DNA of 64,000 bases from Azolla caroliniana. Its lineage: Eukaryota; Plantae; Polypodiophyta. The notes below the pieces were generated by a model. It made no database searches. It was not told the origin of the DNA and saw only the letters and a program-made list of their open reading frames with translations. Position numbers and translations under genes: made by a program. The stretch lies in NCBI GenBank assembly GCA_043228905.1, contig JBHGNT010000016.1, positions 18,476,001 through 18,540,000 on the forward strand. Reading direction: 5' to 3'. This document shows, piece by piece, positions 6,121 to 56,196 of the stretch. Each line of letters begins with the position of its first letter. The stretch's first letter is position 1.

Positions 6121-6419
6121 TATAGCTGTGAGATCACAACGAACTACGTTGAAGGCAACCTTCAGCCGCCATTACGGCACCCAATCGCACCAAGCGGTCT
6201 TGGCCACCTGCCCGACGCCCTGAGCCAGTTGAAGGAACTTCCGACTCGGTGGTCACGGACCAGTCTTTCCAAGAAATATCGGAGGTTCACCGGTTGCAAT
6301 CCTCGGCACCTGCTACTCGGTCGCGAGTTGATTCCACACCGACCTCTCTACCAAGCCCTCTAGAGGTCACCCACCCTGACCCTAACCCTTTTCCGGTTTT
6401 ATCGGAAGATCCAGATTTC

Positions 6420-20654: not shown

Positions 20655-20706
<52 letters not shown>

Positions 20707-22940: not shown

Positions 22941-22988
<48 letters not shown>

Positions 22989-32829: not shown

Positions 32830-32860
<31 letters not shown>

Positions 32861-35800
32861 GCAGCTCAACCCGACTCACGCCTTATGTACAGAAAACGCA
32901 AGAGAGGGTAAGCACCCGACGCCAACAACGACGTGAATATACACAGACAAACATAAACGTATATGTATGTATATATATATGAAGAATACATTTCCGGCTT
33001 CGAGCCGGGCTGAGGTAGGTTACAGTAGTTGTCTGCTGCCAAGCAGCCGTCGGGGAGCTCTCAGCTCGTCGCGTCGAGCGGGGTCTTGCACAAGAGGCCT
33101 AACCAAAGCAACCCCTAAGCAAACACGAAGGAGAGAGAAGAAGAACCTAACTCTAAACCTAACGGTATACCCTCTAATGCAAAATGGGCAACCCTTTCAC
33201 AAAGGGCGTTCCCTTCCTTTTATAGAACAAGGAAAGGGATGTGTTACAATGTGGGACAAATCCCGCCTTCCATGGGATCGTCTGCCCGACTTGACTACTC
33301 TTCGGCGCCATAAAGACGCCCTCGATATTCACACTAAATGTACATGGGTGCGTACACACGCTGCACCCTGCCGATGTAGCCCATGTTTCCCGGTTTCCGC
33401 CTCTGGCCGAAATTCTTCACGACAGCGCGTTTTTATGCCGACCATCATAGGCAACCTCATGTATTCAACCCTGGACAGAAGGTATTTTACGTATACCTCA
33501 CAATTCTAAGACGTTGTCTATGGGTAAGTGCGCTAAGTTAGCCCCACGTTTTTATGGACCTTTTACAGTCCTCAAACGCATTGGGTCATCAGCCTATCGT
33601 CTCGCTCTTCCCGATGGTGTTGGAATTCATCCAGTCTTCCATGTGAGTCGTCTAAAAGAACTTCTAGGTTTTGGCAACAACACAGTTACAACTAAAACTC
33701 TGGTTACTTCTGAAGATTTATCTTCGAAACCACATGTACCAGAAAGAATTCTCGATGTTAAAACAAAAAAGTTAGGTACTAAAGAAATCCGAGAATTTAA
33801 AATTAAATGGATGGACAAATCTATCAAAGATGCCACATGGGAACGCGAGAATACTCTAAGAACAAACTTCCCTAACTTTCCATTGCAAGAGTGCAATGTT
33901 TTAAAGAAGGGGAGTATGTTACGGGCATGACCATTTAATATCCCGTGGTGAGAATTTACCATAGTATTCTATACACGTGGATAAGTGTGAGAGTTAAACG
34001 AGAATGTAAAGAAGGGGAGGATTACTTTTAATCCTCGGGATTGAGACAACCCATTAGGTCCAGTGTGAACTTGCCTGGGGGCCTTGGGTATCGCTATAAA
34101 TAAGAGGCCTAGCTACCCTCATTTGATCATCTTTTCACTACATCGAGACTCTGCTCTTGTGGTGGGTCAACTCTTGTAGCGAGCGCGCCAGCACCAGGTA
34201 CGACTCGACGCCACGGCGGTGGAATGGGACGCCGATCGAGGCTCGAGTCCATCTCGATCTCTTCGCTCAGGGGTGGTCGGGTGGATCGGCACCCTTCTTT
34301 CTCTTTCTCCTTTCTATCTATCATTAGTTTATACTTATGTTAAGCTTACTTTAGTACCTAGATCTCTAATAGCGTACATTAGGTAGGATTAGGCATAGTT
34401 TTAGCAATTAGTTATTTACACCTAAAACACCTACCACATCACCCAAATCACGTCATGTTTAGAGGCACACACTCGTCACTTTCACATTCACTTAAGTATT
34501 TAAGGCACATGCACAGCACCCAAGGCACAACACTAACTCCCTAGGACACATGGCCATAATATCCTATTATGGCATCCACGACCAAGAATCTCCAGGCTCC
34601 TCTTCATGCACAAAACCCTAGGCATTCAATAAAAAACAGTTACCCCAAGCACACCCCACACACAAACGCTTTCTTGCACACCCAGCCTCCATTGCTCCCA
34701 CGCTCTCAAGCCTCCTCTTGCTCTTAGCGCTTTCATCAATCCCACCACTCTTGCTCACCGTAGCCCCTCTGCCGCACCACAACCATCTCCTTCCCTCACT
34801 CTGTCTCAACCTGGTCTCATCCTCCTTCCACAATCTTTCACACAGCAGAACCCCGAGTCCGTTATGCCACTTGCAGCTTCACAGGAAACCCGCTCCTGGC
34901 TTCAGGAACAAGGATTAGGTGGTTATTTAAAGGTGATCGATGCCCCAGCACACCCTGATGCCCAAGCGGTCACACGCCGAATCCACCCAAACATAGTCAC
35001 CAACAATATGATTCGTTTTTCCTTGGACCTGAGTGAGGAAGTGATCATGAAGTAGAGATTCCCCCTTCCACGACCCTGAAGGAATACTTTGGTGCGCATT
35101 CCATATCTGGTAAGGCCTATTGCACTTACGGTGGATCCAACAAGGCATTCGGAGAAATCGCTCGCATCCTGATGGAGTACGCGTTCATGCATACCAACCC
35201 TACAAGTATGCCACAGAACAAAGCGACGATCTGTAAAAGATTATGTGCGGAAGCAATATAGGAAACCGAACAACAGAAAATGTAGGTTAAAAAACAAGAG
35301 AAGATCAATTCAAAAAACTAACACTTTGTACATACATCGTGCTCAGTGAACACCTTTTATACAAGCCCTGACAATGGGCTGACACAAGTACTGACAGTAG
35401 TTGACTGCTCATAAATGAGCCTCGACTCTTACTCCCAAAACTATTCCTTACGAGGAATATCTTTCTAACGGCCTTTCGGTCTACGCACCGATACGGACTT
35501 CCTATGCACCGGTTTGCGTACCGGTTTACACATCCGTTTTACGTACCGGTCCGGCCTAACTAATCGGTCCCAACCGATCTGGTCCTCGGCTTCTTCAGGC
35601 GATCCGGCCAATGTTGAGTTTGTCTCTCAACACTCCCCCTCAAGCTCAACTTGAGGCTCTTCCGGATCTTCCAGATCACCGTTCTGGTTCCTCCTAGCTC
35701 CACGCCTCGCTCGCGCTCCTCGGCTTGTTCAACTCCGCGCGCTTCGACCCTTCCGGTCGGCTTGTCTGCTCCCACGGCCCTCCACAGCTTCCTTGTTGTT

Positions 35801-36224
35801 GCAGTGTTGGCGCTTCTCCTGCTGCCTTCTTTTCCGCTTGGCCCTCGGTTGATTCAATGTATCCGAATCAAACATCCGGACCGACTCGGCTACCTCCGAA
35901 CGGTTTTCGCTCTCGTCCGAGTTGGTTGTCTCCAACTCGTCTTCGGTTTTCTCGCCCTTGACGGCGTCATCTCCCCCATGCTTGGTTGGCTACGGCTCTT
36001 TCTTTCGCTTGGGTGGCTCTGTCGAATACAAATGTATAATGGAAGTATTCACACTATCCTCTTAGAGAGCCCAAGTTCGGGCTATTTCTGTAAATAACAT
36101 AAAGGGCAGTTGCCCTAAGTGAGTCACTATATCAAGTGACTTTGTAACCTTTTGTAAAGGTTGGTTGCTTGTTGTTGTAACTATTGCCCTTTTATGAATA
36201 TAGATATATGCTTTGTGTGTGTGT

Positions 36225-36284
<60 letters not shown>

Positions 36285-36776
36285 TGCTGCCGCCGTCGTC
36301 TGCAGCCGCGTCGCCTGCTGTCGCCGCCGTCTGCTGCTGCCGACGACGCCGCCTGTTGTCGCTGCTGCTGCTGACGCCGCCGTCGCCTGCTGCCGTCGTC
36401 GCCGTCGTCTACCGACTGTCGCCGCCGTCTGCTGCCGCCGTCTCCGTCGTCTGTCGACAGTCGTCGTCGTCTGCTGCCGCCGTCTGCTCTGCCGTCTGCC
36501 GACTGTCGTCGTCGCCGTCACCGTTGCCATCTTCTTTCGTCTACCGTCGTTCTTGGGCGTGTTGTTTGCCGATTGTCGCTGTCCTCGATTCTTGGCCGCT
36601 TTTATCGTGTGTAGCCGTTGCCCTTCATCGTGGTACTTCACTTACCGGACGACGTCACCGGCTGAAACAAGCATACATGTGCTTCTACACTCATATCTAG
36701 CGCGAAAGACGTCGATGCTCGGCTAAGTTTTTTCTGTCCTTTTGTCTTTTTCTTTCTTTATCTTTTGAATTACAAG

Positions 36777-37568
36777 ATGACTTCTCGACGAAACCATAAG
36801 GAAACAAACGAAGAAATTATAAGTAAGGAAGATTTTTTAGATGTCCTTAACCGGTTCGTTAAAATGGAAAAATGGGTGAAAGAAATTGAAGCTGAAAAAC
36901 AAAAAGATAAGGAAGAAAGAGAATTGCTTATTGCTGAAGTAGCGAAACTTAAGGTAGATAACGTAAACCTTCAAAAACGAATTAAGGACCTTGAAACATC
37001 TAGGGAAGATGGTGAAATATCTTCTCTAGAGGATATTAAGGACGAGATAAAAAAAGTTAAAGAAGAGGTTAAAAGTGATATGGAACTAGCAAAAACTGGG
37101 TGGGTTGATGTAGTAAAACGTAATATTATAAAAGAACTAAAGGACGAAAATATTGTAAACACTACCCTCGAGGAGGAAAAAATGTGTCAAGCTCGACGCC
37201 TAAATGTACGAGTTACTGGGCTCAAGGAAGGGGCATCTCCCGACGAAGATGCACAAACCTTGGGTAAAATGTTGGGATATGAAGCCCTACCAATCACTAA
37301 AACTTGGAGGGTAGGGCGTGACACCACTAGGAAAAGAGCTTTAGTTCTTCAATTTAAGGACTCGGAATCTAGAATCGCCTTTTTTAAAAAGAGACCAATT
37401 CTTCGAGGATTGGGCGGGGAGCCCATCTACCTCGATGAAGACTTGACCAAGATGCAAATTGAGCATCGTAAAACTTGTATGCCGCGAGTCATACAAGCTC
37501 GTAAAGAGGGGCATCGTGCCTTCTACCGAGACGGACGGGTCATAATAAATGATCGCGCTGCCAATTGA
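36777..37568 (+). CDS. LINE ORF1 (coiled coil plus L1-type RRM/CTD-like region)
   Basis: Heptad-rich N-terminal half, then RRLNVRVTGLKE...LVLQF...IYLDEDLT motifs typical of LINE ORF1 proteins. Confidence 0.85.
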   Translation: MTSRRNHKETNEEIISKEDFLDVLNRFVKMEKWVKEIEAEKQKDKEERELLIAEVAKLKVDNVNLQKRIKDLETSREDGEISSLEDIKDEIKKVKEEVKSDMELAKTGWVDVVKRNIIKELKDENIVNTTLEEEKMCQARRLNVRVTGLKEGASPDEDAQTLGKMLGYEALPITKTWRVGRDTTRKRALVLQFKDSESRIAFFKKRPILRGLGGEPIYLDEDLTKMQIEHRKTCMPRVIQARKEGHRAFYRDGRVIINDRAAN

Positions 37569-37574
37569 CGGCGT

Positions 37575-40500
37575 GTGGCCCATGTGACAAATAATAGACT
37601 TAGGATGAGTTTATGGAATTGTAACGGTGCACTTTGGACACACCCTGGCCGTCTAGAGGAGATTTTGAGGGTATCTGATATACTTTTTTTGGTAGAAACA
37701 CATCAAAGTCCAAATCGAGGATTACCACGAGTTGATGGTTTTCGTTGGGAATCTGTCTTTAGACAAACCTCACGTCGACACACTACTAGAGGGTCTGGAG
37801 GGGTTGCGATATTATTTCGGAGAGAGATACATAGTAGGATAGAAATACTAAAGAAAGACCCAGAAGCCTGTTTTATGTGGGTGAAAGTACTCACTAGCAA
37901 AGATCAGGTGATATTTATTGCCATTTGTTACTTCCCCCCGAAAGGATCTCGGTATAATATGGCTGGAGTGGCGAGTATAGTTGATGAAGGAACGCCACAT
38001 GGGCCTTCTCCATACGAACCTTTATCGGATGACATAATCCGATATTCTTCTCAAGGGGAAGTCTTCCTTGTAGGAGATTTCAATGCGAGAACCCAATCCC
38101 GCCAATGCACAATATTTCAGATGGATAGAAACCTAGAAATGGTGAATGTCGACCCTTTAGCCTTAGGCATAACACGTACATCAAAAGATCAAGGTGCGGA
38201 CGCCACAAGCTTTGGCCATCATCTGCTTGAACTTGGAAGCCGACACCAGATGATCATATATAATGGCTTAGCCAAGTGGCCGGGCTCGGAAGAGCTCACA
38301 TGTTTCCCACATGGAGGAGGGGAAAGCACAGTTGATTACCTAATAGGACGCCCTGAAGCTACCCACATGGTTAGCTCCTTCCGGGTGGCCCCATGCCCCA
38401 TTGGCGCAGACCATAACTTCCTATACTTTGAGCTAAAATGTGACGCCTCCCACGCCACCAACTCTAGTAAACCAACCCATCGCACTATAATACATTTCAC
38501 GCATGAGCTCGCTGACATCTATTCTCGGCATGTTCAAGCGCATCTCTCCTCTTTTGATTCTTCCTTGCCTTTAGAGCACCTCACTACAGAACTCACACAC
38601 ATCCTCCACTCAGCAGCAACTAGTAGCTTCCCATACACGAAAGACTCCAATCATAGTAGAGTTGGGTCTATGCCACAGAACAAGTGGTATGATGAGGATT
38701 GTAGAGAGTTGTATAGACAACTTAAAGTATCGCGGCTTAGTGGTACTATTTCCTCAGTACAGGCTCGCAAAGAGATGCGCAAGATGACACGTCGTAAAAG
38801 ACGGGCTTGGGAAGCATCTCAATATTGGGAACTCTACCATATGCTCATGAGTAGGGATTGTGCCCTCGCATGGAAGAGGCTACGGGAACCGAGACCACAA
38901 ACACCCATCGAGGATCCCAATATTTGGCACACATATATTGAGAGACTCTACCATGTCCCGAACCAACCACCCATTCCAATGCCCTCCACACCTCGACCTA
39001 CCATGGGGACACTTTTCACGACCTCTAGGGTCACGAAGGTCATCAAAAAATTACAACATAGGAAATCCATGGACCACACAGGATTGTGTGCCGAGCACAT
39101 CATATATGCTCGAGAGTGCCTAGCCCCCCTTCTCGCTCTAATCTTCAACCGCGCCCTCGCCGAGGGTTTTCCACCACAATGGGCCATGAACACAGTGGCC
39201 CCTATACATAAAGGAGGGGACTCAATGGACCCAAATACATATAGGACCGTTATGATAGGTCATACGCTCGCTAAACTATATGGTGCAGTAATGGAAGCGG
39301 AGCTCAGTGATTATATGGAAACATTAAGTCTTCGAGCACCTGAGCAAGCTGGCTTTAGACGAGCCTTCTCCACTATTGACCATATCTTCACACTCAGGTG
39401 CTTAATTGACCAGACAAAGGCTCGTAAGAAGAAACTATATTGTTGCTTTGTGGACTTTCGCAAGGCCTTTGACACGGTTCCTAGGGAAAGGTTGTTTGAT
39501 AGACTTAAGAGCTTGGAGATACCAGATGACATGATCTGGGCCATTTATGCCCTATATGAGCAAGTCTCTGGGTGTGTAAGATGCCCAGGTGGCCTATCCG
39601 ATTGTTTCACTAGCACCATTGGTGTAAAACAGGGTTGCCCCCTATCACCGACTCTTTTTGGGATCTACATTGATGAGATCACTGATTTTATTGCTCGTAA
39701 GGGAGGCAAGGGAGTAGCTATTGGGGAGACGCAAGTTAGTCTCTTACTCTACGCAGACGACATTGTCTTGCTCTCAGAGTCGGAACACGACCTACAAAAG
39801 CATCTTAATGCCCTGGATGACTTTTGTACACAACGAGGACTGGTAGTGAATTTAGCGAAAACTAAAGTCCTTATCTTTCATACATCGTCCCGAGTTAGGA
39901 GTCAATGTCACCTAATCCTCTCTCATAAACCAGTTGAGGTAGTGGGATCGTATGTATACTTGGGAGTCACCTTTAGTGCTCGCTCAGGTAAATTCTTGAT
40001 GACCCAGGCAGCCAAAGATAGGCTAACGAGAGGGTATGCATCCCTCTCACTCTTAGAGAGACAATGCCATCAGGCATACTTTCAAGAGCCACGGACTAAG
40101 GGATGGCTTTTTGACTCATTAGTGACCCCGTCCCTCATGTATGCATCAGTAGTATGGGCTCCAGGTTTACCATCTTTCATGTGGACGCAATTAGAGAGAC
40201 CTTTAGTGACGATGTTATCACGTCAACTCCGAAGCAAATCGACAGTACCACATGACATTATTAGAGCTGAGTTCAGTCTACCCCCGATGTTAGTAGAAGC
40301 ACTCTTTCAAGTGGTAGTTTTTATTCATCGGATACATAGCCAACCACAAGATAGGATATCCCGTCGAGCCTTTGAGGCGTCTCGATCTTTATATGTGTCT
40401 GGCGACACTAGCTCTTGGTATAGCATCGTGGTGAGTTGGCTCCGTGCGAACGGCATAGACATTAATAACCTACCTCCCCTTAAGTACAATCATGGGACTG

Positions 40501-41318
40501 ATCAAACTTTAATCTCTCACGAAGATCGTAATAAAGTGATACGCCAAGAAATATGGCAAATTTACACTCGATACAAATGGATCACCCCACGAGAACCACT
40601 CCCATCTAAAATGGTGTACTATAAGGAAAACTTCTTGCGCTTCTCTATGCTAGGCTTTATTACACGACCAAGATATTTAGATACATTCTTATCAAATGCA
40701 CTAAGGGTGGCCATTGGACAACTTAGGATATCATCTCACCAACTTGAGATTGAGAATGGTCGGGCTAATAGAGTCCCTAGAGAGGAAAGGTTATGTAGGT
40801 TATGCCACATAGAGATAGAGGATGAGTATCACTTCACATGCAAATGCCCAACTTATGCCGAGATACGAGCGGAATACCAAGACATACTAGGACCCTCTCC
40901 CACCCTCTCCAAACTATTAGATACCCCGAATGTAAAGAGACTAGGTAGATATATCTTAGACCTAAAACAACATAGGGAGAATAAATTACAAAGTGCTAAC
41001 GATAACCCTCTTAGTATTCATCACCATGTAACTAGTGTAATTTTTCAGGAACAAGGGGAGACGATGAATGTGGATACACTTACGCCGCTCAGCCTCTCCC
41101 TTGAGGAAGCAGAAATGCAAAGAACAACGAAACGCCCTCGAATGTTGGGCTTCAAAACAAGTCAACGTGGAGTAGACAAGATTAAGAAGATAAGGGAACG
41201 TGAGCTACGTCGACTAGAAGCTATGGTTGGGGTACCTCTTACATGGGGACCACGGGCCACATCCACATCGCAACCCTTTGACCTTCCGCTTCTCTTCGAG
41301 AGACTTGGATGGAAATGA
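37575..41318 (+). CDS. LINE ORF2, intact 1247 aa: APE endonuclease, reverse transcriptase and C-terminal CCHC motif
   Basis: WNCNG, LVETH, GDFNAR, STVDY, ADH (endonuclease); QAGFR, FVDFRKAFD, GVKQGCPLSP, YADD, YLG (RT); RLCRLC..EDEYHF..CP. The start codon is uncertain. Confidence 0.95.
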   Translation: MAHVTNNRLRMSLWNCNGALWTHPGRLEEILRVSDILFLVETHQSPNRGLPRVDGFRWESVFRQTSRRHTTRGSGGVAILFRREIHSRIEILKKDPEACFMWVKVLTSKDQVIFIAICYFPPKGSRYNMAGVASIVDEGTPHGPSPYEPLSDDIIRYSSQGEVFLVGDFNARTQSRQCTIFQMDRNLEMVNVDPLALGITRTSKDQGADATSFGHHLLELGSRHQMIIYNGLAKWPGSEELTCFPHGGGESTVDYLIGRPEATHMVSSFRVAPCPIGADHNFLYFELKCDASHATNSSKPTHRTIIHFTHELADIYSRHVQAHLSSFDSSLPLEHLTTELTHILHSAATSSFPYTKDSNHSRVGSMPQNKWYDEDCRELYRQLKVSRLSGTISSVQARKEMRKMTRRKRRAWEASQYWELYHMLMSRDCALAWKRLREPRPQTPIEDPNIWHTYIERLYHVPNQPPIPMPSTPRPTMGTLFTTSRVTKVIKKLQHRKSMDHTGLCAEHIIYARECLAPLLALIFNRALAEGFPPQWAMNTVAPIHKGGDSMDPNTYRTVMIGHTLAKLYGAVMEAELSDYMETLSLRAPEQAGFRRAFSTIDHIFTLRCLIDQTKARKKKLYCCFVDFRKAFDTVPRERLFDRLKSLEIPDDMIWAIYALYEQVSGCVRCPGGLSDCFTSTIGVKQGCPLSPTLFGIYIDEITDFIARKGGKGVAIGETQVSLLLYADDIVLLSESEHDLQKHLNALDDFCTQRGLVVNLAKTKVLIFHTSSRVRSQCHLILSHKPVEVVGSYVYLGVTFSARSGKFLMTQAAKDRLTRGYASLSLLERQCHQAYFQEPRTKGWLFDSLVTPSLMYASVVWAPGLPSFMWTQLERPLVTMLSRQLRSKSTVPHDIIRAEFSLPPMLVEALFQVVVFIHRIHSQPQDRISRRAFEASRSLYVSGDTSSWYSIVVSWLRANGIDINNLPPLKYNHGTDQTLISHEDRNKVIRQEIWQIYTRYKWITPREPLPSKMVYYKENFLRFSMLGFITRPRYLDTFLSNALRVAIGQLRISSHQLEIENGRANRVPREERLCRLCHIEIEDEYHFTCKCPTYAEIRAEYQDILGPSPTLSKLLDTPNVKRLGRYILDLKQHRENKLQSANDNPLSIHHHVTSVIFQEQGETMNVDTLTPLSLSLEEAEMQRTTKRPRMLGFKTSQRGVDKIKKIRERELRRLEAMVGVPLTWGPRATSTSQPFDLPLLFERLGWK

Positions 41319-41520
41319 AAATAACAATTGTATAACACCATTTTCATTGTAGTAGAACATGTTTCTATATAAAACATGTTTGTTATTTTTTAGAACTATT
41401 TAGCTTAAACTCTATTTTTCATCTTATTTTTATTTTTACTTCGATGAATGGGTAAATATCCCATTTTTGTTGTAAACCATTTGTCTCATGGGCCAATTTT
41501 GGCCTTAGAAGACGTTAATA

Positions 41521-41553
<33 letters not shown>

Positions 41554-42378
41554 CTCTCTCTCTCTCTCTCTCCCTGTACGTATTTTGTTCTTCCCTCTCT
41601 CATACGCAGGTATACCTTCTCACAGATTCATACTGTGTGATCTCTTCCGCACTGATGGCTTTGTTCATTCCCTACATTTGGTATCAGAGCTTGGATGTCC
41701 TTCATCCCGCTGCAGGCCGCCATTCGAATCTTCGGATCACAACATCCTTTTTTTCTGTTTTGTATTTGAAGAAACAGAGAAGAGAGAAGAAGAAAAACGA
41801 GGCTTGCATCTCATCGCATTAGATCATCTTCGCTTGGAGTAAGCCAGCCGGCTGTACTCTGTTCCTCGTGATCGTAACCGCTCGAGGTGAAATCCCCTTG
41901 TGCAACATTGACACGATCGTGCTCCACTCGGTTAAACGACATCCGAACAGGTCACCGAACGCTACTCGCCGCCCGTTGTAACCACTCGGTGCAGATCGGT
42001 CTCAAGACAAAAACCCCAATTCGTGCTTTATCCGGCTGATCGACATTCGGGAGGATCAATTGGATCCGTCTCTCTCGTCGCTGCAGTCACCCGAAGCAGA
42101 ATCGGTCCAGACAATCGGTTTCAATAATCGGTATTTGGCATATATATCCGGAAGCGAACCGGGCTCACTCCGACTCGGCAACATTCGGGGAGACCAATCG
42201 ATTATGTCCCTCAAGTTACCGGATTCAATTCGAGCAAGTTCAACAATACATATATCCAAAACTGAACCGACTCGGGTTCAAATCCGACTAGAACGATATC
42301 GGGTGAGCCGACCGGCTGCACTCCAACAAAGTTCGTAGTCAACTTCGAACCGAGCTTCGTCAACCGAAACCGAATCTG

Positions 42379-45300
42379 ATGGCATCAACATCCGGCTCAT
42401 CGGAAATGAGTCTAAGGAGGTTCGACAGTTCGAACTTCAATTTTTGGAAGGAGCAAATGCAGGACTATCTTATAGTCAAGGGTCAGATCGATCCGATTGA
42501 GAATGAAACTGCTCCAGAAATGTACAAGGCAAATGAGTGGTAGAAGCTGGACAGAATCGTCCGCGCCACGATTCGGATGCACCTGTCGGAGTCAGTGTAC
42601 TTCACAGTGCAATCGTGCACGACAGCCTTCGAACTTTGGAAGAAGCTGTCGGAAACCTACGAAAAGAAGGTCGCCTCAACGAAGATGTATTTGATTCGGC
42701 GCCTCTACAACTTGCGGATGAAAGACTCCGATTTGGTTCAGGCACACCTTAACGAGTACGAAAGTTTGAGCTCCCAAATCTCGTCACAGGGGACGACAAT
42801 CGAGGATGAACTCAGAGCAATGATACTCATGAGCAGTCTCCTCTCCTCTTGGGAAACCTTCGTTACAACTGTGTGCAACGCTTCTACGACTGCCATCAAG
42901 TACTCCGAAGTCACAAGTGCAATCCTGACTGAAGCAGCTCGGAGAAAGTCTTTCACCAAAGACTCGGCAGAAGAAGCCTATGTAGTACAAGGTTCGACCG
43001 ACCGATCGAACAACCAGGGAAGAAGCTCTTCCCGACCGCCGACAAATCAGCGAAGCCGCAGCAAGTCCCGGGAAACCCGAATCTGCAACTACTGCAAGAA
43101 ACCGGGACACATCAAGGTCGACTGTCGGGTACTCAAGTCAAGGACAGACAAAGCTCAGAGAGCTTATCAAAGGAGTAACCAGCATGAGGAAGTCAACTAC
43201 GTCGGCTCTTCAGCCGAGATATTAATGACCGACCCGAATATATTGTCCATAGAGAATCCAGTCAAATCAGAAGTTCTGCTTACGACCGAGGAATCGAGCA
43301 CATGGCTTCTGGACTCGGGCGCGTCGTATCACGTGACACCTCACCGATCACAGTTTCGGCAATATTCAGACCAACACTCCGACTCAGTTCGGGTCGGAAA
43401 TTCGCAGCACTGTGCTATCATCGGAATCGGCACCGTAGAGCTCAACCTTCTGGGTGGCTCTACACTCGTACTACACAACGTCTGACACGTTCCTGAGCTC
43501 TCACGACCCTTGATCTCAGTCGGACAACTTGATGAAGCTGGCATCCGTGCTGGTTTCTCATCAGGAGGGTGGACACTCCACAGAGGGAACCTCCTACTTG
43601 CTAGAGAACCAAAGGTACACTCATTGTACCCTTTATATGTCACACTCAGAGAGGGTGACTTATTTTTGGTAGATATCCCTGTGTCATCCTTATGGCATGG
43701 ACGACTTGGACACCTCAGCAAGGCCGGCATCACGCACCTATCCAGAGTCGGATACATCCCGAAACTCTCCTTCTCGGACCATCAGTTTTGCGAGCATTGC
43801 CAGTACGGAAAACAGGTAGCTGCATCACACCCGACATCAGCACCAAGAGAGCCGAGCCCGCTCGATTTGGTCCACTCGGACGTCTGTGGCCCGATGCCAC
43901 ATTAGTCACTCGGTGGTGCCTCGTACTTCGTCAGTTTCATTGACGACTCGACTCGGAAGGTGTGGGCCTACCCCATCAGAACCAAAGATCGGGTGTTCTC
44001 GATCTTCTCAGATTGGCTCGCAATGGTTGAAAACCAGACCAGTCGGAAACTGAAGTGTCTCTGAACCGACAATGGAGGTGAGTTCAAATCTGATAAATTC
44101 GTCAAATTTTGCCGAGAACGCGGCATTAGACGTTGTCGTGAAGATTTCCGTCCATAGGCGGAAACCGGGGTGGAAGGGGCAAGTCGGTGGTGTGCAACAT
44201 GTGCACATGTATACTAGGATATGGTGTATAGAAAGAGAGGGGAAATTTTTGTCCCACATTGTAAGGTCCCTCCCTCCTTGGGCTATAAAAGGAGGGGAGG
44301 GGTCACTTATGAAGGGGTTGTCTATTTTGTGCGAGTAAGGTATACCACTTAGTCTAGGGTTCTCCCTCTTCCCATTTCGTTTTAGGGTTAGGGTTTCGGT
44401 TAGGGTTTTCTTCTTGGGTTTCCCTTTAGGGTTTTCGGATAGTCATTTTTGGTGCGGCCATGGCGGCCACCACTGTTGTAACCGTTCGTTGTTTTAACAT
44501 AACTTGTTGAACATCTTGCCTCCGCCGATCTCTCCTTCGATGTCGTGGTCTTATTCTTTCCTCTTCTCCTCTTGAGCTAAGCCTCCATATCATGTCCTAT
44601 TCTTTCTCCTCCACTCCCTAGTCCAAGACCCCCGCGGTCCCGCCCCTTCTACAAGCATGCGCATAACAACGCGACAACTTGAATATACGGCACCATATAG
44701 TCCTGAGCAAAACGGAATCACAGAACGCATGAATCGGACGATTCAAGAACGCGTTGTATCCATGCTCCAACACTCCGGACTGTCGGATGGCTTCTGGGCA
44801 GAGGCTCTACTCACGGCAGTACACATAATCAATATGTCGCCAAGTAGACCTCTAGGACTTAAGATACCTCAGGAAATATGGACCGGCAGGAAGCCGAATT
44901 ATGATAAGCTGAGGATTTTCGATTGCGAGGCATACGCCCTCATACCGAAAGACGACCGTTGAAAACTCGAACCGAGATCAAGGAAATGCATTTTCCTTGG
45001 GTATGGACCCGATGGCGAGATCGGATACCGACTCTGGGACCCCAAGCACAGGCAAATCATCCAAAGTTTGGACGTCGTGTTCAACGAGTCGACTATGCAC
45101 AAAACGGCCGAAAGGCCTATTGAAGTCCGAAGGGTAATATTTTCCAAAGTGCCAACCCTTCATGACGGCCCAGCACACAACGTGAGATCGGTTTCACGGG
45201 TAACCGACCTCTCTCGCACCGAATCCACAGATTCGGCACAGCCGAATGGCTCGGCTTCCGACCATCCGACATCGACACCCGGTGCGACCAGTCCAATCAT

Positions 45301-46951
45301 ACCTCGAAGATTCAAGAGACTGTCGCAACCTCCGGAGAGGTACTCTCCCGGAATTTTCTTCACCGACGCCGGCGAACCGACGTCCTACGAAGAAGCATCG
45401 GCAGCTGCCGATTCAGCCACTTGGAATCTGGCAATGGAGTCGGAAATGCACTCCATCCGCGCCAACAAGACTTGGGATCTGGTCGACTTACCGAAGAATC
45501 GACGTGCTCTTCCTTGCAAGTGGGTCTATAGACTAAAGGAGACGTTCGACTCGACCACCCCAAAGTACAAGGCCAGATTAGTTGCGAAGGGATTTCGAGA
45601 GGAATATGGCGTCGACTTCGACGAAATCTTTTCACCAGTGGTGAAAATGACAACCCTTCGTTTCATGCTCGGTGTTGTGGCTGCCAACAATTTGGAGCTG
45701 ATTCAGCTAGATGTGAAAACGGCATTCCTCCACGGTGATCTAAAGGAGGAAATCTACATGGAGCAGCCGAAAGGTTTTGTGGCCACCAGTCAGGAACATC
45801 TAGTCTACCGACTCAGGAAGAGCCTTTACGGCCTGAAACAGGCACCCCGACAGTGGTACAAGAAGTTCGACGATTTCATCCAGTCGATCGGCTTCTCCAA
45901 GAGCGATGAGGACCACTGCCTCTTCACCAAAACCGCTCAAGACGGTTCTCCCATCTTCCTCATCATCTACGTGGACGACATGCTACTCTCCGGTCGGCAT
46001 ACCGGAGAGCTCACCGAACTCGTTCGGAAACTGTGATTGAAGTTTGCCATGAAGGACCTCGGTCCGGCAAGACACATACTCAGAATGAAGATTAGTCGGA
46101 ATCGCGCCAAAAGACAGCTTTTTCTGTCTCAAACCGACTACATCGGACGTGTCTTGGAACGCTTCAACATGCAATCGGCCAAGTCTGCTTAGACCCCGCT
46201 TCCCATTCATCTTCGGCTTTCTCAGCGAGACTGCCCGACATCCGTTCCGGAGGGGGAAGATATGAAGTCGGTACTGTATGCATCGGCAGTAGGCTCCCTG
46301 ATGTACGCGATGGTCGCGACACGGCCTGATATTTCTCACGTCGTAGGAGTCATCAATAGATTTATGCACAATCTTGGCCGATCGCACTGGAATGCAGTCA
46401 AGCATGTGTTCAGATATTTAGCTGGCACAAAAGACCACGGCATCCTTTTCGGTCCGAACTCAACTTCAGGCGTAGTCGGTTACACCGACTCGGACTTCGT
46501 CGGCTGTGTGGATAGTCGCAAGTCAACAACCGGATATTGCTTTAAATTCGGCAATGGAGCAATCTCGTGGAAGTCGAAACTTCAAGAGTGCACAGCCACC
46601 TCAACGACCGAAGCAGAATATGTAGCTGCCTCCGACGCAGCGAAAGAAGCTTTATAGCTCGGTCGGCTGGTGCACACGTTTCGGCAAGTCGACTCCGACT
46701 CGGCTCCAGTTGTCTACAGCGACAGTCAGAGTGTCGTTGCTTTGTCGAAAAATCCGGTTCATCACAACGCCTCCAAGCATATCGAAGTTCGATATCACTT
46801 TGTTCGGGACTGCGTCATTTCCGGGAAAATCGGTTTAGAGAAGATATCCACAACCGATAATGTCGCAGATGGAATGACCAAGTGTCTTTCGGCAGACCGG
46901 TTCCGGTCTCTTCGGCAACAGATGGGTGTAACAACATATCGGTCCGGTTGA
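42379..46951 (+). pseudogene. gag-pol of Copia I (several stops, interrupted at 44134-44676)
   Basis: CNYCKKPGHIKVDC, WLLDSGASYH, HSDVCGP, QLDVKTAFLHG, YVDDML, YTDSDF, KHIEVRYHF. Confidence 0.92.
44134..44676 (+). mobile_element. Solo LTR of an E/F-related family
   Basis: Termini TGTCGTGAAG...ACAACGCGACA and the subterminal motif AGTCCAAGACCCCCG are shared with E/F LTRs. TSD ACGT/ACTT; removal restores GIRR|EY of I's integrase. Confidence 0.88.
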
Positions 46952-47470
46952 AGCCGGACACAGTGCAGGACGGTTTCGGACAACAGACATCGGTTCACTG
47001 ATGATCGGCTTCAGCTTTTCCGACCCGACCAGTTCGGTCTTCTGTCTACGGATCATGCCGATTCGAACAAAACCGACCTATCCGAGAACCTATGCCTATA
47101 CCCGTAACTTTTAGATAACCCATGTATACGCCCATTACGGGGGAGTGTCGAATACAAATGTATAATGGACGTATTCACACTATCCTCTTAGAGAGCCCAA
47201 GTTCGGGCTATTTCTGTAAATAACATAAAGGGCAGTTGCCCTAAGTGAGTCACTATATAAAGTGACTTTGTAACCTTTTGTAAAGGTTGGTTGCTTGTTG
47301 TTGTCACTGTTTCCCTTTTATGAATATAGATATATGTGTTGTGCCTCTCTCTCTCTCTCTCCCTGTACATATTTTGTTCTTGCCTCTCTCATACGCAGGT
47401 ATACCTTCTCACATATTCATACTGTGTGATCTCTTCCGCACAGATGGCTTTGTTCATTCCCTACAGGCTC

Positions 47471-50400
47471 CCCTTATGTTCTCTTTTGGACTCTTCCGCA
47501 GATCTGCCCTCGGCTTCTTCAGCCGATCCGAAATCGAATTCGTCATCCGACTCGGCGTCGTGGTCTTCTGTCCCCCCTCCGTGGTCATTCGGAACATCTC
47601 TCCCCCTCAAGTTCGGCACGTCGAGGTGACGCAACCCAAGCGCACCCGAGAATTTCCGCAACTTGTCCAAACACGTTGTGTGCACTGAAGGTGTTCCTCG
47701 GTAGGTCGCGCCATGAACTGACTTATCACCCCGACCGGATAACTGAGATCGAGTCGGGTGATTGTCAAGTAGATAAGGCTTCCGACAATTTGTCGGAACC
47801 TCGTCGGGTCGCATACCTTTCCAGAATTGGGGCGAAACTTGACGGTTTGATCCGAGGAGTCAAGACGGATTTACAGTCAGCCATCCCGAATTTGAAGAGC
47901 ATATTCAGCGCATAATGATGTTGGCTGATCAGTATGCCTTCGGGGGTGCGGATCACTTCGATCCCGAGGAAGTAATGAAGGTCTCCCAGATCCTTCATGT
48001 CGAATGATGCCACAAGCTGGAGCTTCACGCGGTTGATTTCACCTAGGTCAGTGCCGGTGATGACCAAGTCATCAACATATAGCAAAATACTGACCGGACC
48101 AAGTCGACCTTTCCGAATGAATGGGGAAGAGTCCGATTTTGACGTTGTGAAGCCCATCCGACACAGTTACTGCGTGATCTTCGTGTTCTAGGCACGCGGG
48201 GCTTGCTTTAGTCCATAAAGGTACGTCTTTAATCGGCACACCACCGAGGTGTTTGTTCCGGAGTGAAATCTGGGGGTTTGTACCATGTACACCTGTTCCT
48301 CAAGCTCACCTTGCAGGAACGCATTCTTTACATCCATCTGATGTAAGTGCCACCCCTTTGCCACAGCTACCGCGAGCAAAACACAGACGGTCGTCATCTT
48401 TGCGACCGACGCAAACATCTCATCGTAGTCGATGCCGTGTTTTTGCGCGTAGCCTTTTGCCACTAACCGGGCCTTGTATCGGTTGACCAAGCTGTCGGTG
48501 TTGTACTTGACCTTGTACACCCACCTACATTTGATCGGCTTCACCCAGGTCCCAGGTCTCGTTTTCCGCCAATGCGTGCATCTCTTCCTCCATCGCGGCG
48601 TGCCAATTCGCATCCTTAGCCGCTTCTGCGTAGCTCTCCGGCTCACGCACTTCCGCTACACGGGTCATGTATGCATAATGATGCGCCATGTACTCGTTGT
48701 ATCCGAAACGCACAACTGAGTTCTTCTGGCGGGTAGATCGGCGTAATCGGTCATTAGCCGATGTCAAGGTCTTCTCGGCCGACACGGACTTCACTCTTGA
48801 AGAGCCGTCACCACCGCCCTCAGAGTCGGACTCGCGTCGACCCAACTCGTTCCTATCTGTGTCATAATCTGACACCTTCTTCTTCCCTTTTTCTTTGCGT
48901 GTAAGCCGTCTCCACGACTTCCTACGCGGGGAATGCACAACCGAGTCTCCACTACTCGCTGGTTCTTCATCGGACTGGTCGAACCGACTCAGTCGTCCAT
49001 TCAGTCCGCTTAACCGAAACGAAATCGGACTCTCTTCGTGGGTCCCAATTTCAAGCTCATGCGGAAGCATCTCGGCCTCGCTGACCTCATCGTCAGAACT
49101 TGGATTGGAGGTGAGGTCCGGAGTTAGAGGCAAGTACCAGGACGCGGACTCGTCAAACACAACGTCGCGGCTCACGCGGACTTGTTTGGTGCGTGGGTTA
49201 TAACACTTATAACCTTTCTGCTCGTCCGAGTAACCAACCAAGATACATTTTTCGGCCTTTGCATCTAGCTTTCTCCGTTTCTCCTTCGGCACATGCACAT
49301 ATGCAATGCTACTGAAAACTCGTAAGTGTCGCAAGTTCGGCTTCGTTCCGAAATATAGCTCATGCGCCGACACTTTGTCTCTGATCCGGTTCTGGATGGA
49401 TACCGCGGTTCATACCGCCTCGGCCCAATAGAACTTGGGCATGCTCTTTTCTTCCAACATTGCCCGCGCCGCTTCCACAACCGACCGATTTTTCCTCTCA
49501 GCCACGCCGTTTTGCTCCGGCGTGTATCTACAACTGAATTCATGCCGAATTCCCATTTGTTGTAGATAACCGTTGAATTGGCCGGAAAAGTATTCTTTTC
49601 CGCCATCTGACCGCAAGCACTTGATCTTTCTTCCAGTTTCCGTTTCCACGAACCCTTTGAGGTCCCGGAAACAATCGAAGACTTCGCTCTTCCTCTCAAT
49701 GAGGTAGATCCACGTGTGCTGCGTGTAGTCATCAATGAAGGAGACGAAATATCGGCTCCCGCCAAGACTAACGTTTTGTGTCGGCCCCCACACATCGGAG
49801 TGTATCAAGTCGAGCTTGTTCCGGCTCCGGTTACGCTCATTGGGGAAGGGAAGTCGGAGTTGCTTCCCAAGCTGGCAGGCTTCACAAATTTGTGCCTTCC
49901 GGCCACTAAATTTGGGCAATCCGAACACCACTTGTTTCGATTGCAGGTCCTGAAGCCGTTGATAGTTGACGAGGCCTATCCGCTTGTGCCATAAGTCGAT
50001 GTCCGACTCGACTTTTTGTCCTTTCGCAAACATTGCGGTGCCACCGTCAGTAGAGTCGAGGATCAACATCCTCCCATCTCTGCGCCCTTGCGCAATAACA
50101 CGGCCTTCTTCCTCAATGAAGCACCCGAGGTGTGTAAACCGTTCCTCCATCCCTTGGTCGACGATTTGTCCGACCGACACCAAGTTCTTCGTGATTGTTG
50201 GAACGTGTAGCATGTTCATGAGTTTCCCTTTCTGCCCGACATGGCTTAGGGGAACTTCTCTGACATTCGCGATCGGATGCGGAGTGTCGTCTCCGGTTGC
50301 GACTACTCTCGGTTGCATCGGTTTTTCTAGGTACGAGAACCACTCCTTATGGCTCGTCATGTGATTTGACGCGCCGGAGTCGACGTACCACACCTCGTCC

Positions 50401-51397
50401 AATTTCGGGGTAGTCTACTTCATTGAGTTTGCTTCATGTTTCATAACAAAGACTGACCCTTTTACGGCTTCTCCGGATCCTTCGGCGTAGTGCGATCGTT
50501 GCTGATTTCCTTTGTCGGTCTGTCCGGAACCTATTCTGGACCCAGTTCTCTCCGAATCATCATGCTTTTTCCATCACTCGCTCTCCCTGTGGCCTTTCTT
50601 GCCACAGTACCAGCATTCGCAGATTTCCCTTGCCGGTTCTCGTCGCCTCGACTCCCCCTGTTTCCGGAGGGTCCGGAATTGCTATCAGCATCACTTCGGT
50701 GCCTTCTTCCTTGATCCCGTCGGCCGCCTCCATTGTGTGCCGACTCGCCTGGTCCACCACGACCACGAGGCCTATCTCCCTCCGTGTTCAGCATCTTGAT
50801 GTCGGCATGCGTGCTTGTCAACGCATCCACGTGGTTCTCCTCTACTAGGAGCATCGACTGTAAGTCGAAAAAGGACGGAGTATTCTCCCAGGTACACACA
50901 GCAGTTTGGAACGCCCCGAACTTCGACGCCAAACCCCCGAGACAGACCTGGACCATCTCGCTTTCCTCGATGTTCACATCGATGGAAGCTAAGGAGTCGC
51001 ATATGTCCTTAATCCTCGAGGTATAGTCAGCCACCAACAAAGCGCGTTGTCGTAGGTTGCTCAACTCCTGTCGGAGCTGAAGCTTCCTAGGTGTGGTGCT
51101 GGCGGCGAAAATCTTCTTCTGATTTTCCCACGTACCCTTCGGTGTTTTTGCATCCCGAACGTAGCTTAATAGTTGTTCACCCACACAAGACGCGAAACAG
51201 TACAGCACTCTGCTCGCCGATTGTTCCCACGCCGGGAAATCTTTGTGTGTCGAATCGGGTGCTGTGTCATTTGCTCCATCGACATAGCTCCAGTAACCAT
51301 GTCCAAGCAGGTACTGGTGCATCTTGTAAGACCAAGACACGTAGTTGTTTCTATTGAGCTTCTCTGTCGGAAGCGAGCTAGCCATTCCTCTGTCCAT
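47471..51397 (-). pseudogene. gag-pol of Copia H (frameshifted, RNase H core missing)
   Basis: Gag KLNRNNYVSW, protease WYVDSGASNHM, integrase HSDVWGP and RSDGGKEY, RT QMDVKNAFL and LYVDDLVI. After EEHLQCTQRV the sequence jumps to the terminal LDKLRKFSGALGL. Confidence 0.9.
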
Positions 51398-54300
51398 CGG
51401 TTTTCTTGTTCTTCTTCGTTGGTTTTTCCTTCAAGCAAAATCGACTGCAGAGGTTCTCAACCCTCCGCTCTGATACCATGTAAAAGATTATGTGCGGAAG
51501 CAATATAGGAAACCGAACAACAGAAAATGCAGGTTTAATGGAAAGCTTAGGTTTTCACAGTACGCACGGGAGAGGCAGAGAGTAAAAACAAGAGAGATCA
51601 ATTCAAAAAACTAACACTCTGTACATACATCGTGCTCAGTCAACACCTTTTATACAAGCCCTGACAATGGGCTGACACAAGTACTGATAGTACTTGACTG
51701 CTCATAAATGAGCCTCGACTCTTACTCCCAAAACTATTCCTTACGAGGAATATCTTTCTAACGGCCTTTCGTAGACCCGATACGGCCTTCCTACGCACCA
51801 GTTTGCGTACCGGTTTACGCATCCGTTTTACGCACTGGTCCAGCTTAACCGATCGGTCCCAACGGATCCGGTCCTCAGCTTGCTCAGCCGATCCGGCCGA
51901 TGTTGAGCTTGTCTCTCAACACGATCATTATCAATGAATACGAGGGAAACAAAATCTATTGGGGAATCATCACCGGCGAAGGAGTCCGCGCGGCGCTCGA
52001 ATCCTTCCAAACCGGTCAGCATTTGTTGCCTGTGATCAATCACTTCCTCACAGTCCTCTACCCACCTCCTTCGGTTTCCCCTCATCGCATCCTGACCTCT
52101 CCACCACCACCAAGGAAACAACGGGAGAAGATTTTGGCGATAACCCAGGAAGAATGGGAAGACCCCTCGCCTTCTCCACCTACCTCAAGCACTCGGAACC
52201 CCACTTCGCCTCGGCACCACCCCCACCAAAAACACTGAAACAACGGGCGGTCACAGCGACTGTCAAATGGGACGAGGCCAAGGAGCCCATCCCCGAGGAT
52301 GTCACCATACGCCAAAAACCACGAAGGACATCAATGACCTCTCCACAACCGAGCCCACGTCCCACAAGCCAGCAGCCCTTGGCCATCCAACAGCAAAAGA
52401 GGAAACATGCCGAGGAGCCAACACCACCGGCCCCGGACGCACAGGATCAGCCGCCAAAAAGACGTTGCATCATTCGAGAGGCAACCACAGAAACCGAGGG
52501 TGACCATCATAAGAAATAAAAAGAGGACAGCCCAACCTCCATGGCCATGGTACCAACGGAGTCATGGCTCCAAGTCGGTAGGATCGAGCATGGACAAACC
52601 ACGCAGATATCAGAGGAGGAAGTCATCGGTTACAAAGATCTCCCCACGGAGGCATACGAGTTCAGTGCACTACTTCGACTAGGCACAACATATGAGTTAA
52701 TGGATTTCCTCACGCACGCCCAAGTAGTTGTTGCCGCTTGTATGGCCGAGGAGCACGCCGAAACAAAGATGATTCAACGCGCTCTAATGGGTGAAATCGA
52801 ACCTCACGAGGATCGAGCCTTACAAAAGATACGACGGAAGAAGCAAGCACAGAATGCTTCGCTCCTCATGGAACTACCAGATCTGAACATGGCCTTAGTC
52901 AAGGCATATCGCAATCTACTCCACACTACGCGGGCAGCCAAGGACATGGCCCAACGTATCAAAACGGTGCATCAGCAAGCCAAACGGGCTACCGAGCTAT
53001 GGCAAGCCGCCGAGGAGAAACTGGCGACATTCAAGCAACAACATCCAGAACAGCCGCCCTTAAGCCTCCCTGCGCCGAGTGACATTGTCTCACCAGCCAC
53101 TCTTCTGAACCCGAGCCCGAGTGCTGAAGGTACCGACGCCCACAAAAACGACACCGCCCACCCCAAGGTAGCCACGGTCAATGATAGCACAATGACAGAC
53201 TCGGTACAGACAAGTGAGCCATCGTCACGGGCAGATATTAGCCTGCACCCCCAAACCAACCAAGCCTCCACGCAAACACCACCACCCTCGGTCGTCATGG
53301 AACGATCTACACAGACAGACAGGGAACCCTCTCCCCGAATCCAGCAAGCGGCAACCCAGACAGGGCCCCCCTTCGGGACTACCAGGAGGAACTAAAGGCA
53401 CAGATCGCTCTGGCCGAGTTGGCAGAACAGAACCAACACAACATTCTTGGCCAGCTACGGGAACAAGCCGCGAGCCGCAAAGCTGACCTCAAGTGACTGC
53501 TTGCTGAAAGGTCGGCCACACTTGAAGAACGAGAAAGAGAGGTGATGACTCTTCAGGTCTCTATCAATGAGGCCAAAGAATGTTTCATCCAAGAAGCAGA
53601 GCGGAATAGCCAACGGGAACAATAGCTATTTGCGGACAACCAGGAATTACGACGTCATCAAAAGGCCTTACAAGACATGGCCAACGAACATATGCAAAAA
53701 TGGAGGATCTCGGAAGAGCAAAGGGCAAAAATTTCCGATGTGTATCACCAGTTGCAAACCAAGCACATCGCTGTCAGAGAACAACATTGGGACGCTTGGC
53801 GACAGGACGTGGACGAAATTGTAGCTCAGCTCACTACACGCTATGAGCAGACAATCGCACTCATCACCAAAAAAGCAAAAGATAATCAAGCTACTTTAGC
53901 ACTCCTCGTCCGCAAAAGCCAAGCAGATGCTAAGACCGCAAGGGAGGCAATGGAAGTTCACCGTGCTAGCATCGGCATGGACGATACTAAAATCAAGATC
54001 CTAATCAACAAGTATCACCAGCAATTCACCACAAAGATCAAAGACACACTTGACCGTGTCTGGAAGGGGTGGTCAGCCCAAGCCGCAAACCTACACATAC
54101 TACGCGCGAACGCCGAGAACCAACGGAAGGAGGGCCGAGGGTTTTACAAGATGGATGACACTAGCATCCAGACCCTCCATGAAGACTTAACTGAGGAATA
54201 TCATACCTTAGCAGCTTCCCACACCGCGGCCATCGAGCAACTTTTAGAAGAATTCAACGACGATCTTATGATGTTTTGCTTAGAAGCCAAAGCTTACGAG

Positions 54301-54729
54301 GATGAACAACTAACCACCGGGATTAACAGAGCTCCCACAAACAACGAGCAAGGACCCGAGCCACCCACCACGGCAGCTAGACTGGAGGAACCTGCCCCGA
54401 CAAACCTCCACATCCCACCGGAGCCACAGACTATAAACCCGACCCTACCTGAACCGGTCCCAACAGAGGAGGCCGCACACATCGGCATAGCCATCCCCGA
54501 CTCGGCAACACAACCTCCATCACCAACCCCACCTTCCGAGCAGCCAGACCAACCCCACACCCCCGAGGATATCCTCGGCATATTGGAAGAGGAATAAAAC
54601 CAACCTATAAGCCCTCATAGGAACGAGCAATTTTTGTAATTTGTGTTGTTTTGCCAAATCCATGGTTACTCCTCCACATTGTGAACCGTGAGTCCGACGG
54701 ACAAAGTCCTGTCCCACAGGCGTGCCAGG

Positions 54730-55220
54730 TGTTCTCCATAGGCCAGAAATATAAATATATTATGTAAACTCGCCGTTAGGTAGAAGAGTAGGTGAGGAAA
54801 TAGGTAAGACTAGAAATAGCCATGTTTTAGCCCTCACAATCAGCCGATGGCTCGGCTCTGTCTGAAGGGAAAAACAATATAACCCAAGTTATGCATACCT
54901 CAAGGGGGGATCAGCTAGATCATTCTTAGCGAGAGTAATATCCCAGCAGTAAGTTCTGTACGAACTGTTTCCAGCTAAGGCTGAGTACTGTAATCACTGT
55001 GAGCTTCATCATTTAATATAAGTTTCATTTTTATTCTTCTATCTATGTATTCTCCCCGTACTCGTAAATCAAGCTTCGTTTATGCCTGACGGGTTGTAGC
55101 CGTGTACGCTCTTCGTTCTCCTTTCTTCTCCCCGTGTAGAAGAGACTTCCACGTAACACGATCCCTTGACACCGATAGCTTGTGGGCTCATCGAAGGTGT
55201 TTTCCTAGAAGCGGTTAACA
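54730..55220 (+). repeat. 3' LTR of element C
   Basis: TGTTCTCCATAGGCC...GCGGTTAACA, followed by TSD CCGTC. Confidence 0.92.
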
Positions 55221-56196
55221 CCGTCCAGTCTAACCAACGCGCCCCCAGTCTTCCAGCACATGGAAAATGATATATTCAGAGATCTCTTGGATATCTGTTT
55301 GATCATCTACCTGGATGATCTATTGTTTTATTCGAAGACCCAGGAAGAGCATGATTCTCATGTACTATTAGTACTAAAACGACTCTGAGAGCATGGTCTT
55401 TATGCCAAACTAAAAAAATGTTGTTTTGATTGCAAGCAAGTGGAATTTCTAGGCTACGTCATCTCCTCAAAAGGCATCTCCATGGATCCAGCTAAAGTCC
55501 AAACTGTGCTAGAGTGGCAAACTCCATGTTCGTTGCGAGATGTGCAATGTTTTCTAGGCTTTGCTAACTTCTACCGTAAGTTTATACAAGATTACTCGAA
55601 GATTATTTTACCTCTCACACAGCTTACCAAGAAGGGACAATCATTTCTTTGGTCCAATGAAGCGGACATGGCTTTTATGCATCTTAAGAAAGCCTTTACA
55701 TCAGCACCTATTCTAGCTAATGTTGATACAAAAAAAACAATTCATCATGGAGGCCAACGCATCAGATTTCGCCCTCGGTAGCATCCTTTCACAACAAGGA
55801 GATAAAGAAAAGTTATATCATGTGGCTTTCCACTCACGCAAATTTGATGCCACAGAAATTAACTACGAGATACATGACAAGGAATTATTAGCCATCGTGG
55901 ATTAATTAGTGCAATGGCGGCACTTCTTAGAGGGCTCTCCTCATCAAGTCATCGTCTTCAATGATCACAAAAATCTTGCTTACTTCCAGAATGCTCGTGT
56001 ACGAAATCGGCGGCAAGCTCGGTGAGCCTGATTCCTCACGTGTTTTGACTTCAAAATCAAATATCGGCCAAGGAAGCAGCAAGGAAAAGCAAATGCACTA
56101 TCGCGACGTTCATATCTTGCACCTCGTCCGGGTGATCCAGCATTTGATAATCAAAAGCAGGTAATCTTGGGACCAACACATTTGCACACAACACGG

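Follow-up and report, generated by a model that had tools for sequence, protein, structure and literature searches.

Most LTR retrotransposons are described as carrying a polypurine tract (PPT) before the 3' LTR (PMC6317226), and in the accounts of Ty3 and HIV-1 this PPT is encoded by the element, resists RNase H, and primes the plus strand next to U3 (PMC5371799, PMC13332604). HIV PPT mutants are reported to rely on the central PPT and on 1-LTR circles, and not on a tRNA (PMC13332604). Among plant elements, Brassicaceae ATHILA is described as having a conserved junction between PPT and 3' LTR (97%; 10.64898/2026.03.20.713144). In the bipartite primer-binding sites (PBSs) reported for Ty1 and Ty3, it is the element RNA that is complementary to the tRNA, and the strand primed there is the minus strand (PMC5371799). 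Plus-strand priming from a PPT is regarded as common to retroviruses and LTR retrotransposons, and the exceptions to standard priming that we found concern the minus strand. In the literature searched, which covered few subscription papers, no LTR element is described as priming its plus strand with a tRNA.

Here, we describe element C, a Ty3/gypsy retrotransposon in the window (the whole stretch of 64,000 nucleotides that was analysed), in which a near-copy of a host tRNA stands where the PPT is expected. Judged from the sequences, the 3' site is real, conserved, and clade-wide, and it likely reflects Ty3/gypsy replication with dual tRNA priming.

Element C and the site before its 3' LTR

Element C spans 4865-55220, a length swollen by nested elements; its repeats, priming sites, and reading frames are all on the forward strand. 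It lies within the RT gene of another Gypsy element, between a left target site duplication (TSD), CCGTT (4860..4864), and a right TSD, CCGTC (55221..55225), which differ by one mismatch. These flanks, together with the host RT frame that resumes beyond the break, show that 4865-55220 is one insertion. The 5' LTR (4865..6102) is split by a nested solo LTR at 5204-5947; with the latter set aside, it is 93.5% identical to the 3' LTR (54730..55220), and the LTRs have TG...CA ends. After the 5' LTR follow a 5-nt spacer, CAATT (6103..6107), and a 13-nt minus-strand PBS complementary to the 3' end of tRNA-Arg(UCU) (6108..6120, TGGCACGCCCGGT), which agrees with the normal PBS that an earlier, sequence-only reading of this DNA had placed at 6108. 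A gag-PR-RT-RH-INT region with stops and frameshifts occupies approximately 6400..11600, in the domain order that is likewise found in two related families, F71 and F77. Fragments of an extra sense ORF lie 3' of pol (51938..54597) and have no Pfam family above the cut-off.

The intervening part (11622..51922) is filled by nested insertions, namely two copia elements with further nested elements and a LINE, amid which a short piece of element C is left at about 34372-35231. The LINE (36666-41318) has two open frames of 300 and 1249 aa, of endonuclease-RT type by eye. Another LTR element, at 25696-31989, has 723-nt LTRs that are 99.6% identical, a PPT, and a tandemly duplicated interior (26419-28887 / 29160-31621), in which no pol was seen.

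The usual gypsy PPT is absent before the 3' LTR of element C. Instead, two bases 5' of this LTR, we found a 40-nt site built from a split near-copy of tRNA-Arg(UCU). It consists of a block matching tRNA positions 49-58 (54688..54697), a 13-nt hairpin insert made of C, a 4-bp stem with a 3-nt loop, and T (54698..54710), and a sense copy of positions 59-76 that ends in CCA and is one C short (54711..54727, GTCCCACAGGCGTGCCA). The insert separates the tRNA copy exactly at A58|G59, and a 2-nt spacer, GG (54728..54729), leads from CCA to the TG of the LTR. The sequence-only reading had located a tRNA-like site correctly but drawn it too short, as the site starts already at 54688. It had also described the sequence before the 3' LTR as not purine-rich, and the count bears this out, with nine purines in the last 15 nt compared with 13, 13, and 12 in the three other window elements measured. 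A 9-mer match at one of four spacer positions would arise by chance with a probability of about 1e-5. Further matches to GGCGTGCCA/TGGCACGCC in the window are at 17122, 25674, and 48597, the first two of them within another element, at an insertion point. ARAGORN reported no tRNA in the window, and a tRNA gene or a SINE as the source of the 3' site was rejected on this basis.

Conservation and anatomy of the site

A DNA search of the element's own genome (523 Mb) returned 587 candidates, of which 40 were scored and 30, the window copy included, were fetched. The motif is kept in 30/30 of these best-scoring family C loci, and in 28 of them it has at most two mismatches to the tRNA 17-mer minus one C. 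The spacer is GG in 27/30, and most loci read GGG where the window copy reads AGG. The CAATT spacer and the PBS are likewise present at each of the 30 best 5' junctions. A rearrangement peculiar to the window copy, which the earlier reading had named as a way in which its observation might fail, was rejected because the motif is in 30/30 loci. The same reading had pointed to host tRNA-Arg, and both sites of element C do match the host tRNA-Arg(TCT) genes, which end in GAGTCCCACCGGGCGTG: the PBS over 13 nt and the 3' site over positions 59-76 minus one C. CCA is encoded by 0/5 full host tRNA-Arg(TCT) genes. No ungapped match to the motif was found among the host tRNA-Arg(TCT) genes by a pattern search, which returned the two-C form only.

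Three further families with unrelated LTRs have the site before every 3' LTR seen, and none of these LTRs is preceded by a PPT. They are F77 (about 9 kb; 15 3' LTRs; spacer AG), F74 (2.4-2.7 kb, without pol; 15 3' LTRs; spacer TATG), and F71 (about 9.4 kb; 17 3' LTRs; spacer TG). Across families, the distance from the site to the TG of the LTR is 2-5 nt, and the insertions have ordinary 5-bp TSDs at TG. Within F77 there are two subfamilies (L082, L099, L102), each with one tRNA mismatch in the 3' site; the mismatched position differs between the two, though the positions are neighbours. The LTRs of F74 type (L074:1990-2020, L319:1400-1460) have telomere-like CCCTAA repeats at their end and a G/C-rich inverted repeat inside. 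In L217, L143, and L082, a purine-rich stretch, possibly an old PPT, is found just 5' of the tRNA-like block, and it varies across clusters.

The PBS of F71 and F74, TGGCGACCAC, is a match to tRNA-Arg(TCG) without complementarity to the 3' site. These families therefore combine an Arg(UCG) PBS with an Arg(UCU) 3' site, so the 3' site is independent of the tRNA used at the PBS. This bears directly on the proposal, made in the sequence-only reading, that the tRNA-like 3' sequence may pair with the PBS after the 5' LTR and so circularise the RNA or let it prime itself; self-priming of the minus strand after cleavage would resemble that of Tf1. In favour of such pairing, the motif has 11 nt of complementarity to the PBS in most copies of family C, and there are mis-transfer products that join PBS-side DNA to the motif (L318, L319, and L326). 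As a general explanation, however, it is contradicted by F71 and F74, and the tRNA match extends 29 nt beyond the PBS-complementary part. Priming of the minus strand by tRNA is shown by the places at which a full tRNA copy stands on the PBS side (98 for Arg-UCG and 13 for Arg-UCU, described below), and the plus strand would be left without a primer. We consider this explanation extremely improbable, and self-priming of the Tf1 type was rejected on the grounds of the PBS-side copies and the non-complementary PBS of F71 and F74.

The site is also present in metagenome sequence. A metagenome scan gave at least 123 pattern matches, 118 of them with enough flank, and the upstream T-arm block, which was outside the search pattern, is present in 96 of these 118 matches listed. 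Most of the metagenome loci share 70-85% identity with their closest counterpart compared in the own genome, but the RT of one database protein is identical to that of F77, so that the matches may come from few taxa. Viral contigs gave two pattern matches. In runs labelled as three other organisms, possibly close relatives, contigs cover the motif region at 80% likeness, without long flanks. A PPT-bearing sister lineage was sought in the own genome; the search gave 150 matches at 66-67% identity, and those recognisable by their place were copies of F71 type.

The anatomy of the site was compared across 39 clusters; these are related to one another, and one of them probably matches by chance. 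In 70/96 of the metagenome matches listed with the upstream block, the insert has a length of 13 nt. Its 4-bp stem is Watson-Crick in 137/156 cells of the 39 clusters, with changes on both sides, compared with a mean of 96 and a maximum of 109 in shuffles (n=2000). At positions 51-57, 19 of the 28 substitutions are G>A or T>C, so that a wobble pair of the tRNA with minus-strand DNA would be kept, and position 58 varies in 9/39 clusters; the wobble and covariation counts overstate independence, since the clusters are related and transitions are common anyway. F77, whose copies are near-identical, has a non-wobble mismatch inside the last 11 nt of the site. When folded alone, as RNA or DNA, the motif does no better than shuffles (z -0.75 to 0.34); a short hairpin is present in the centroid DNA fold of 4/4 minus-strand sites. 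The point at which the insert splits the tRNA copy is next to position 58, and m1A58 is a modification established for HIV-1 as a stop for RT after 18 nt (PMC8599865). Host tRNA-Arg(UCU) presumably carries m1A58 as well.

It could also be proposed that the motif persists as a relic of a tRNA, or acts as a signal for packaging or for opening the tRNA, and that a purine tract at some other place primes the plus strand. Candidates for such a tract are the 10-nt purine run at 54585 in element C and the purine-rich stretch just upstream of the motif in some families. Yet the 15 nt upstream of the motif range from 3 to 12 purines across the 39 clusters, the junctions put the end of the cDNA at the CCA spacer, and ordinary 5-bp TSDs at TG need a precise primer adjoining U3. 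We therefore regard this explanation as very unlikely.

tRNA copies before U3 and at the PBS

If a tRNA is placed at the site, failed primer removal may leave tRNA sequence in the genome. We searched for exact copies of the tRNA-type 17-mer, in which the missing C is restored, together with CCA, and assigned each place to a side by comparison with libraries of ordinary junctions. There are 35 exact Arg(UCU) places: seven are before U3, 13 belong to the PBS side, and 15 remained unplaced. L193 is among the unplaced; the others mostly show AT-rich spacers that are long, as on PBS sides. The seven U3-side places represent four events. A near-match search (at most two mismatches) gave 43 places, and the 21 matches classified in 20 further loci add four events (L131, L348, L352, and L361), which brings the total to eight. 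L366 was judged U3-side by eye and excluded from the count, L346, L362, and L370 are unplaced, and copies of the element's own type that have an additional base (L344, L350, L367, L372, and L373) are kept outside the count of tRNA copies. The Arg(UCG) 17-mers served as a control: of 100 exact places, 98 fall on the PBS side (U5), none at U3, and two are unplaced. The comparison of Arg(UCU) with Arg(UCG) at U3 gives p=1.5e-6 by place and 3e-4 by event (Fisher).

In these rare events, the retained sequence is mature tRNA-Arg(UCU) with CCA, 18 to about 60 nt long, directly before the spacer and U3, and five of the eight are at LTRs with a PBS downstream. For example, the F77 event is one insertion with three tandem LTRs and the 5-bp TSD AATAG, in which both junctions run from U5 through a spacer, a T, precisely tRNA 59-76, and AG into U3, with three differences from F77's own motif. 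About 52 nt of tRNA, carrying A58>T, stand 5' of the 5' LTR in the F74 event, and the event in a concatemer of F71 LTRs has 54 nt of tRNA in three copies. Two events are complex (L319 and L361), that of L319 belonging to a complex F74-like element. At two end-to-end junctions (L134 and L182), an A precedes the spacer and U3. Copies of this kind are what a tRNA primer of the plus strand would predict. The aberrant copies show that, in some events, a tRNA was bound to the site by pairing; this tRNA may also be the routine primer.

Several other loci preserve products of aberrant transfer. In L193 (G000:C21:4842457-4842487), an F71 5' LTR and spacer lead into an Arg(UCU) 18-mer and then into the interior of gag, with a 2-nt overlap; as this join is inside gag, tRNA capture is possible away from the 3' site. 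In L190 (G000:C11:7905500-7906100), a lone LTR is bordered on the left by a primer-like remnant of 10 nt and on the right by 18 nt copied from the PBS; the arrangement resembles integrated plus strong-stop DNA, and the 10-nt remnant fits either primer. L319 (G000:C3:8087100-8094700) has F74-like LTRs that are 99% identical, a 5-bp TSD, and an interior of 6.4 kb of antisense F71, with tRNA-type sequence at both inner junctions. The tRNA-Arg(UCG) copies kept on the PBS side with at least 17 nt (L374-L469, L171, and L173; 100 places) are often at deletion or fold-back junctions and form an extensive natural archive of second-strand transfers that went astray. In L353, L365, L369, L173, and L414, head-to-head U5-U5 junctions are bridged by a tRNA copy, and since some of these are between different families, they suggest co-packaging.

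The U3-side copies have to be weighed against a primer made from the element's own RNA. Here, the RNA motif itself would survive RNase H as a tRNA-like, non-purine equivalent of the PPT, be cut after CCA, and prime the plus strand, and the tRNA copies would be by-products of homology-driven template switching, in which the nascent minus strand could jump from element RNA to tRNA. The 2-nt geometry would then be the same as that of a PPT, and a T-arm-like RNA stem is possible in 2/4 folds of the motif; however, G53>A and T55>C disrupt this RNA mimic yet preserve pairing with the tRNA. The ectopic capture in L193 is compatible with template switching, whereas a tRNA annealed for such a switch already has its 3' OH toward U3. 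The retained A at L134 and L182 fits both primers, as do the 10 nt of the strong-stop-like insertion L190, but the placed U3-side remnants longer than 10 nt are all of tRNA type and none is a short remnant of element type. Short remnants of the element's own motif number 0 among 61 distinct ordinary junctions, a small sample drawn for a purpose other than rare retention, and 0 among 5 U5-junction matches. Moreover, five events are at PBS-followed LTRs, where the sole template 5' of U3 would be the plus-strand primer, and the identity with one isoacceptor persists though the PBS uses another. On balance, we judge an own-RNA primer to be unlikely.

Proposed priming and comparison with known systems

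It is highly probable that host tRNA-Arg(UCU) anneals to minus-strand DNA at the 3' site and primes the plus strand. The site is identical in sense to the tRNA and so can pair with it only as minus-strand DNA. Plus-strand tRNA priming is supported, at the level of the genome, by the conservation across the family, the match to host tRNA-Arg(TCT), and the presence of true tRNA sequence before U3, and the suggestion of the sequence-only reading that a second tRNA-Arg on minus-strand cDNA may prime the plus strand thus gains backing from conservation, host match, and aberrant copies alike. Priming of the minus strand by tRNA-Arg(UCU) or tRNA-Arg(UCG) at the PBS is supported by the PBS-side copies. 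We also think it probable that the whole clade lacks a PPT and uses two host tRNA primers. One, Arg-UCU or Arg-UCG, would start the minus strand; the other, tRNA-Arg(UCU), would be reserved for the plus strand and bind minus-strand DNA through a three-way junction tuned to m1A58. The genome would then preserve failed intermediates still carrying the primer.

According to this proposal, RNase H would clear the RNA, and tRNA positions 59-76 would pair with the minus-strand site, leaving one C bulged, while positions 49-57 would pair past a small DNA hairpin looped out opposite the non-pairing m1A58. RT would then extend the tRNA from A76 through the spacer into the LTR. The tRNA would normally be removed by RNase H, sometimes leaving its last A behind; where removal fails, the minus strand would copy the tRNA, mostly to A58 (18 nt) and sometimes to the D arm. 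Trimming of the 2-5 nt spacer at integration would give the TG ends and 5-bp TSDs. It can be speculated that the bulge and hairpin shield the tRNA from RNase H or reduce mis-transfer of plus strong-stop DNA to the site.

If true, the use of host tRNA for both strands would be a new copying mode for LTR elements. The PPT would be dispensable for precise, integrase-ready ends, in a clade that is high-copy and has near-identical recent copies, and the site would offer a natural test of what lets an RNA primer resist RNase H. There would also be a second point of control, through tRNA supply, m1A58, and 3' tRNA fragments. Annotation seeded on the PPT would overlook these elements.

Element C is a member of a plant clade of Ty3/gypsy retrotransposons outside the chromoviruses. 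An RT tree of 131 rows (matches kept at ≥80% query coverage for proteins and 60% for loci) unites C, F71, and F77 in one clade (100/99), which is placed among Riccia, Adiantum, and Marchantia homologs and is separate from the clade of angiosperms; the clade labels were derived from domains and organism names. In F71 and F77, the polyproteins comprise gag, RT, a single RNase H region, and integrase, and neither a chromodomain nor an aRH family was found in them. An assignment to the chromoviruses was rejected because of the missing chromodomain and the placement in the RT tree, and Tat (TatI-III, Ogre, Retand) was rejected because F71 and F77 have one RNase H region only and no additional aRH. 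Phygy and Selgy are described by a 4-bp TSD, a Trp or Ala PBS, and no extra ORF (PMC6317226), and were rejected because of the 5-bp TSD, Arg PBS, and extra ORF found here.

By REXdb criteria, the clade is Athila-like, except in PBS type and PPT junction. As described for Athila (PMC6317226), these elements have no aRH and no chromodomain, a 5-bp TSD, an AT-rich spacer before the PBS, an extra ORF, a long 3' region, and a length of 9-10 kb. However, the PBS reported as dominant in Athila is Asp/Asn/Ala (PMC6317226), whereas here it is Arg(UCU) or Arg(UCG), the PPT junction reported for Brassicaceae ATHILA is absent in the clade of element C, and the RTs of C, F71, and F77 group with homologs from non-seed plants, outside the angiosperm clade.

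With the canonical replication of Ty3 and HIV-1, the clade shares a tRNA-primed minus strand, a primer site adjoining U3, the gag-PR-RT-RH-INT order, and integrase-type ends; the difference is the element-encoded PPT there and, here, no PPT and probably a host tRNA primer. The split pairing with acceptor stem and T arm of a tRNA recalls the bipartite PBS reported for Ty1 and Ty3, one part of which is described near the 3' end in Ty3, but the site of element C has the sense of the tRNA. Self-priming and half-tRNA priming (Tf1/Tcn1, TAR, and copia/Osser/Bianca) also depart from standard priming, but as described in PMC6317226 all act on the minus strand and none replaces the PPT. Finally, defective HIV-1 proviruses are reported to contain inserts of 7-54 nt copied from tRNA-Lys3 on the PBS side (PMC12657518), and in both systems integrated defective copies record a primer tRNA copied by RT. 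The inserts described for HIV-1 are antisense and on the PBS side, whereas the elements described here have a second class of copies, in sense orientation and before U3.
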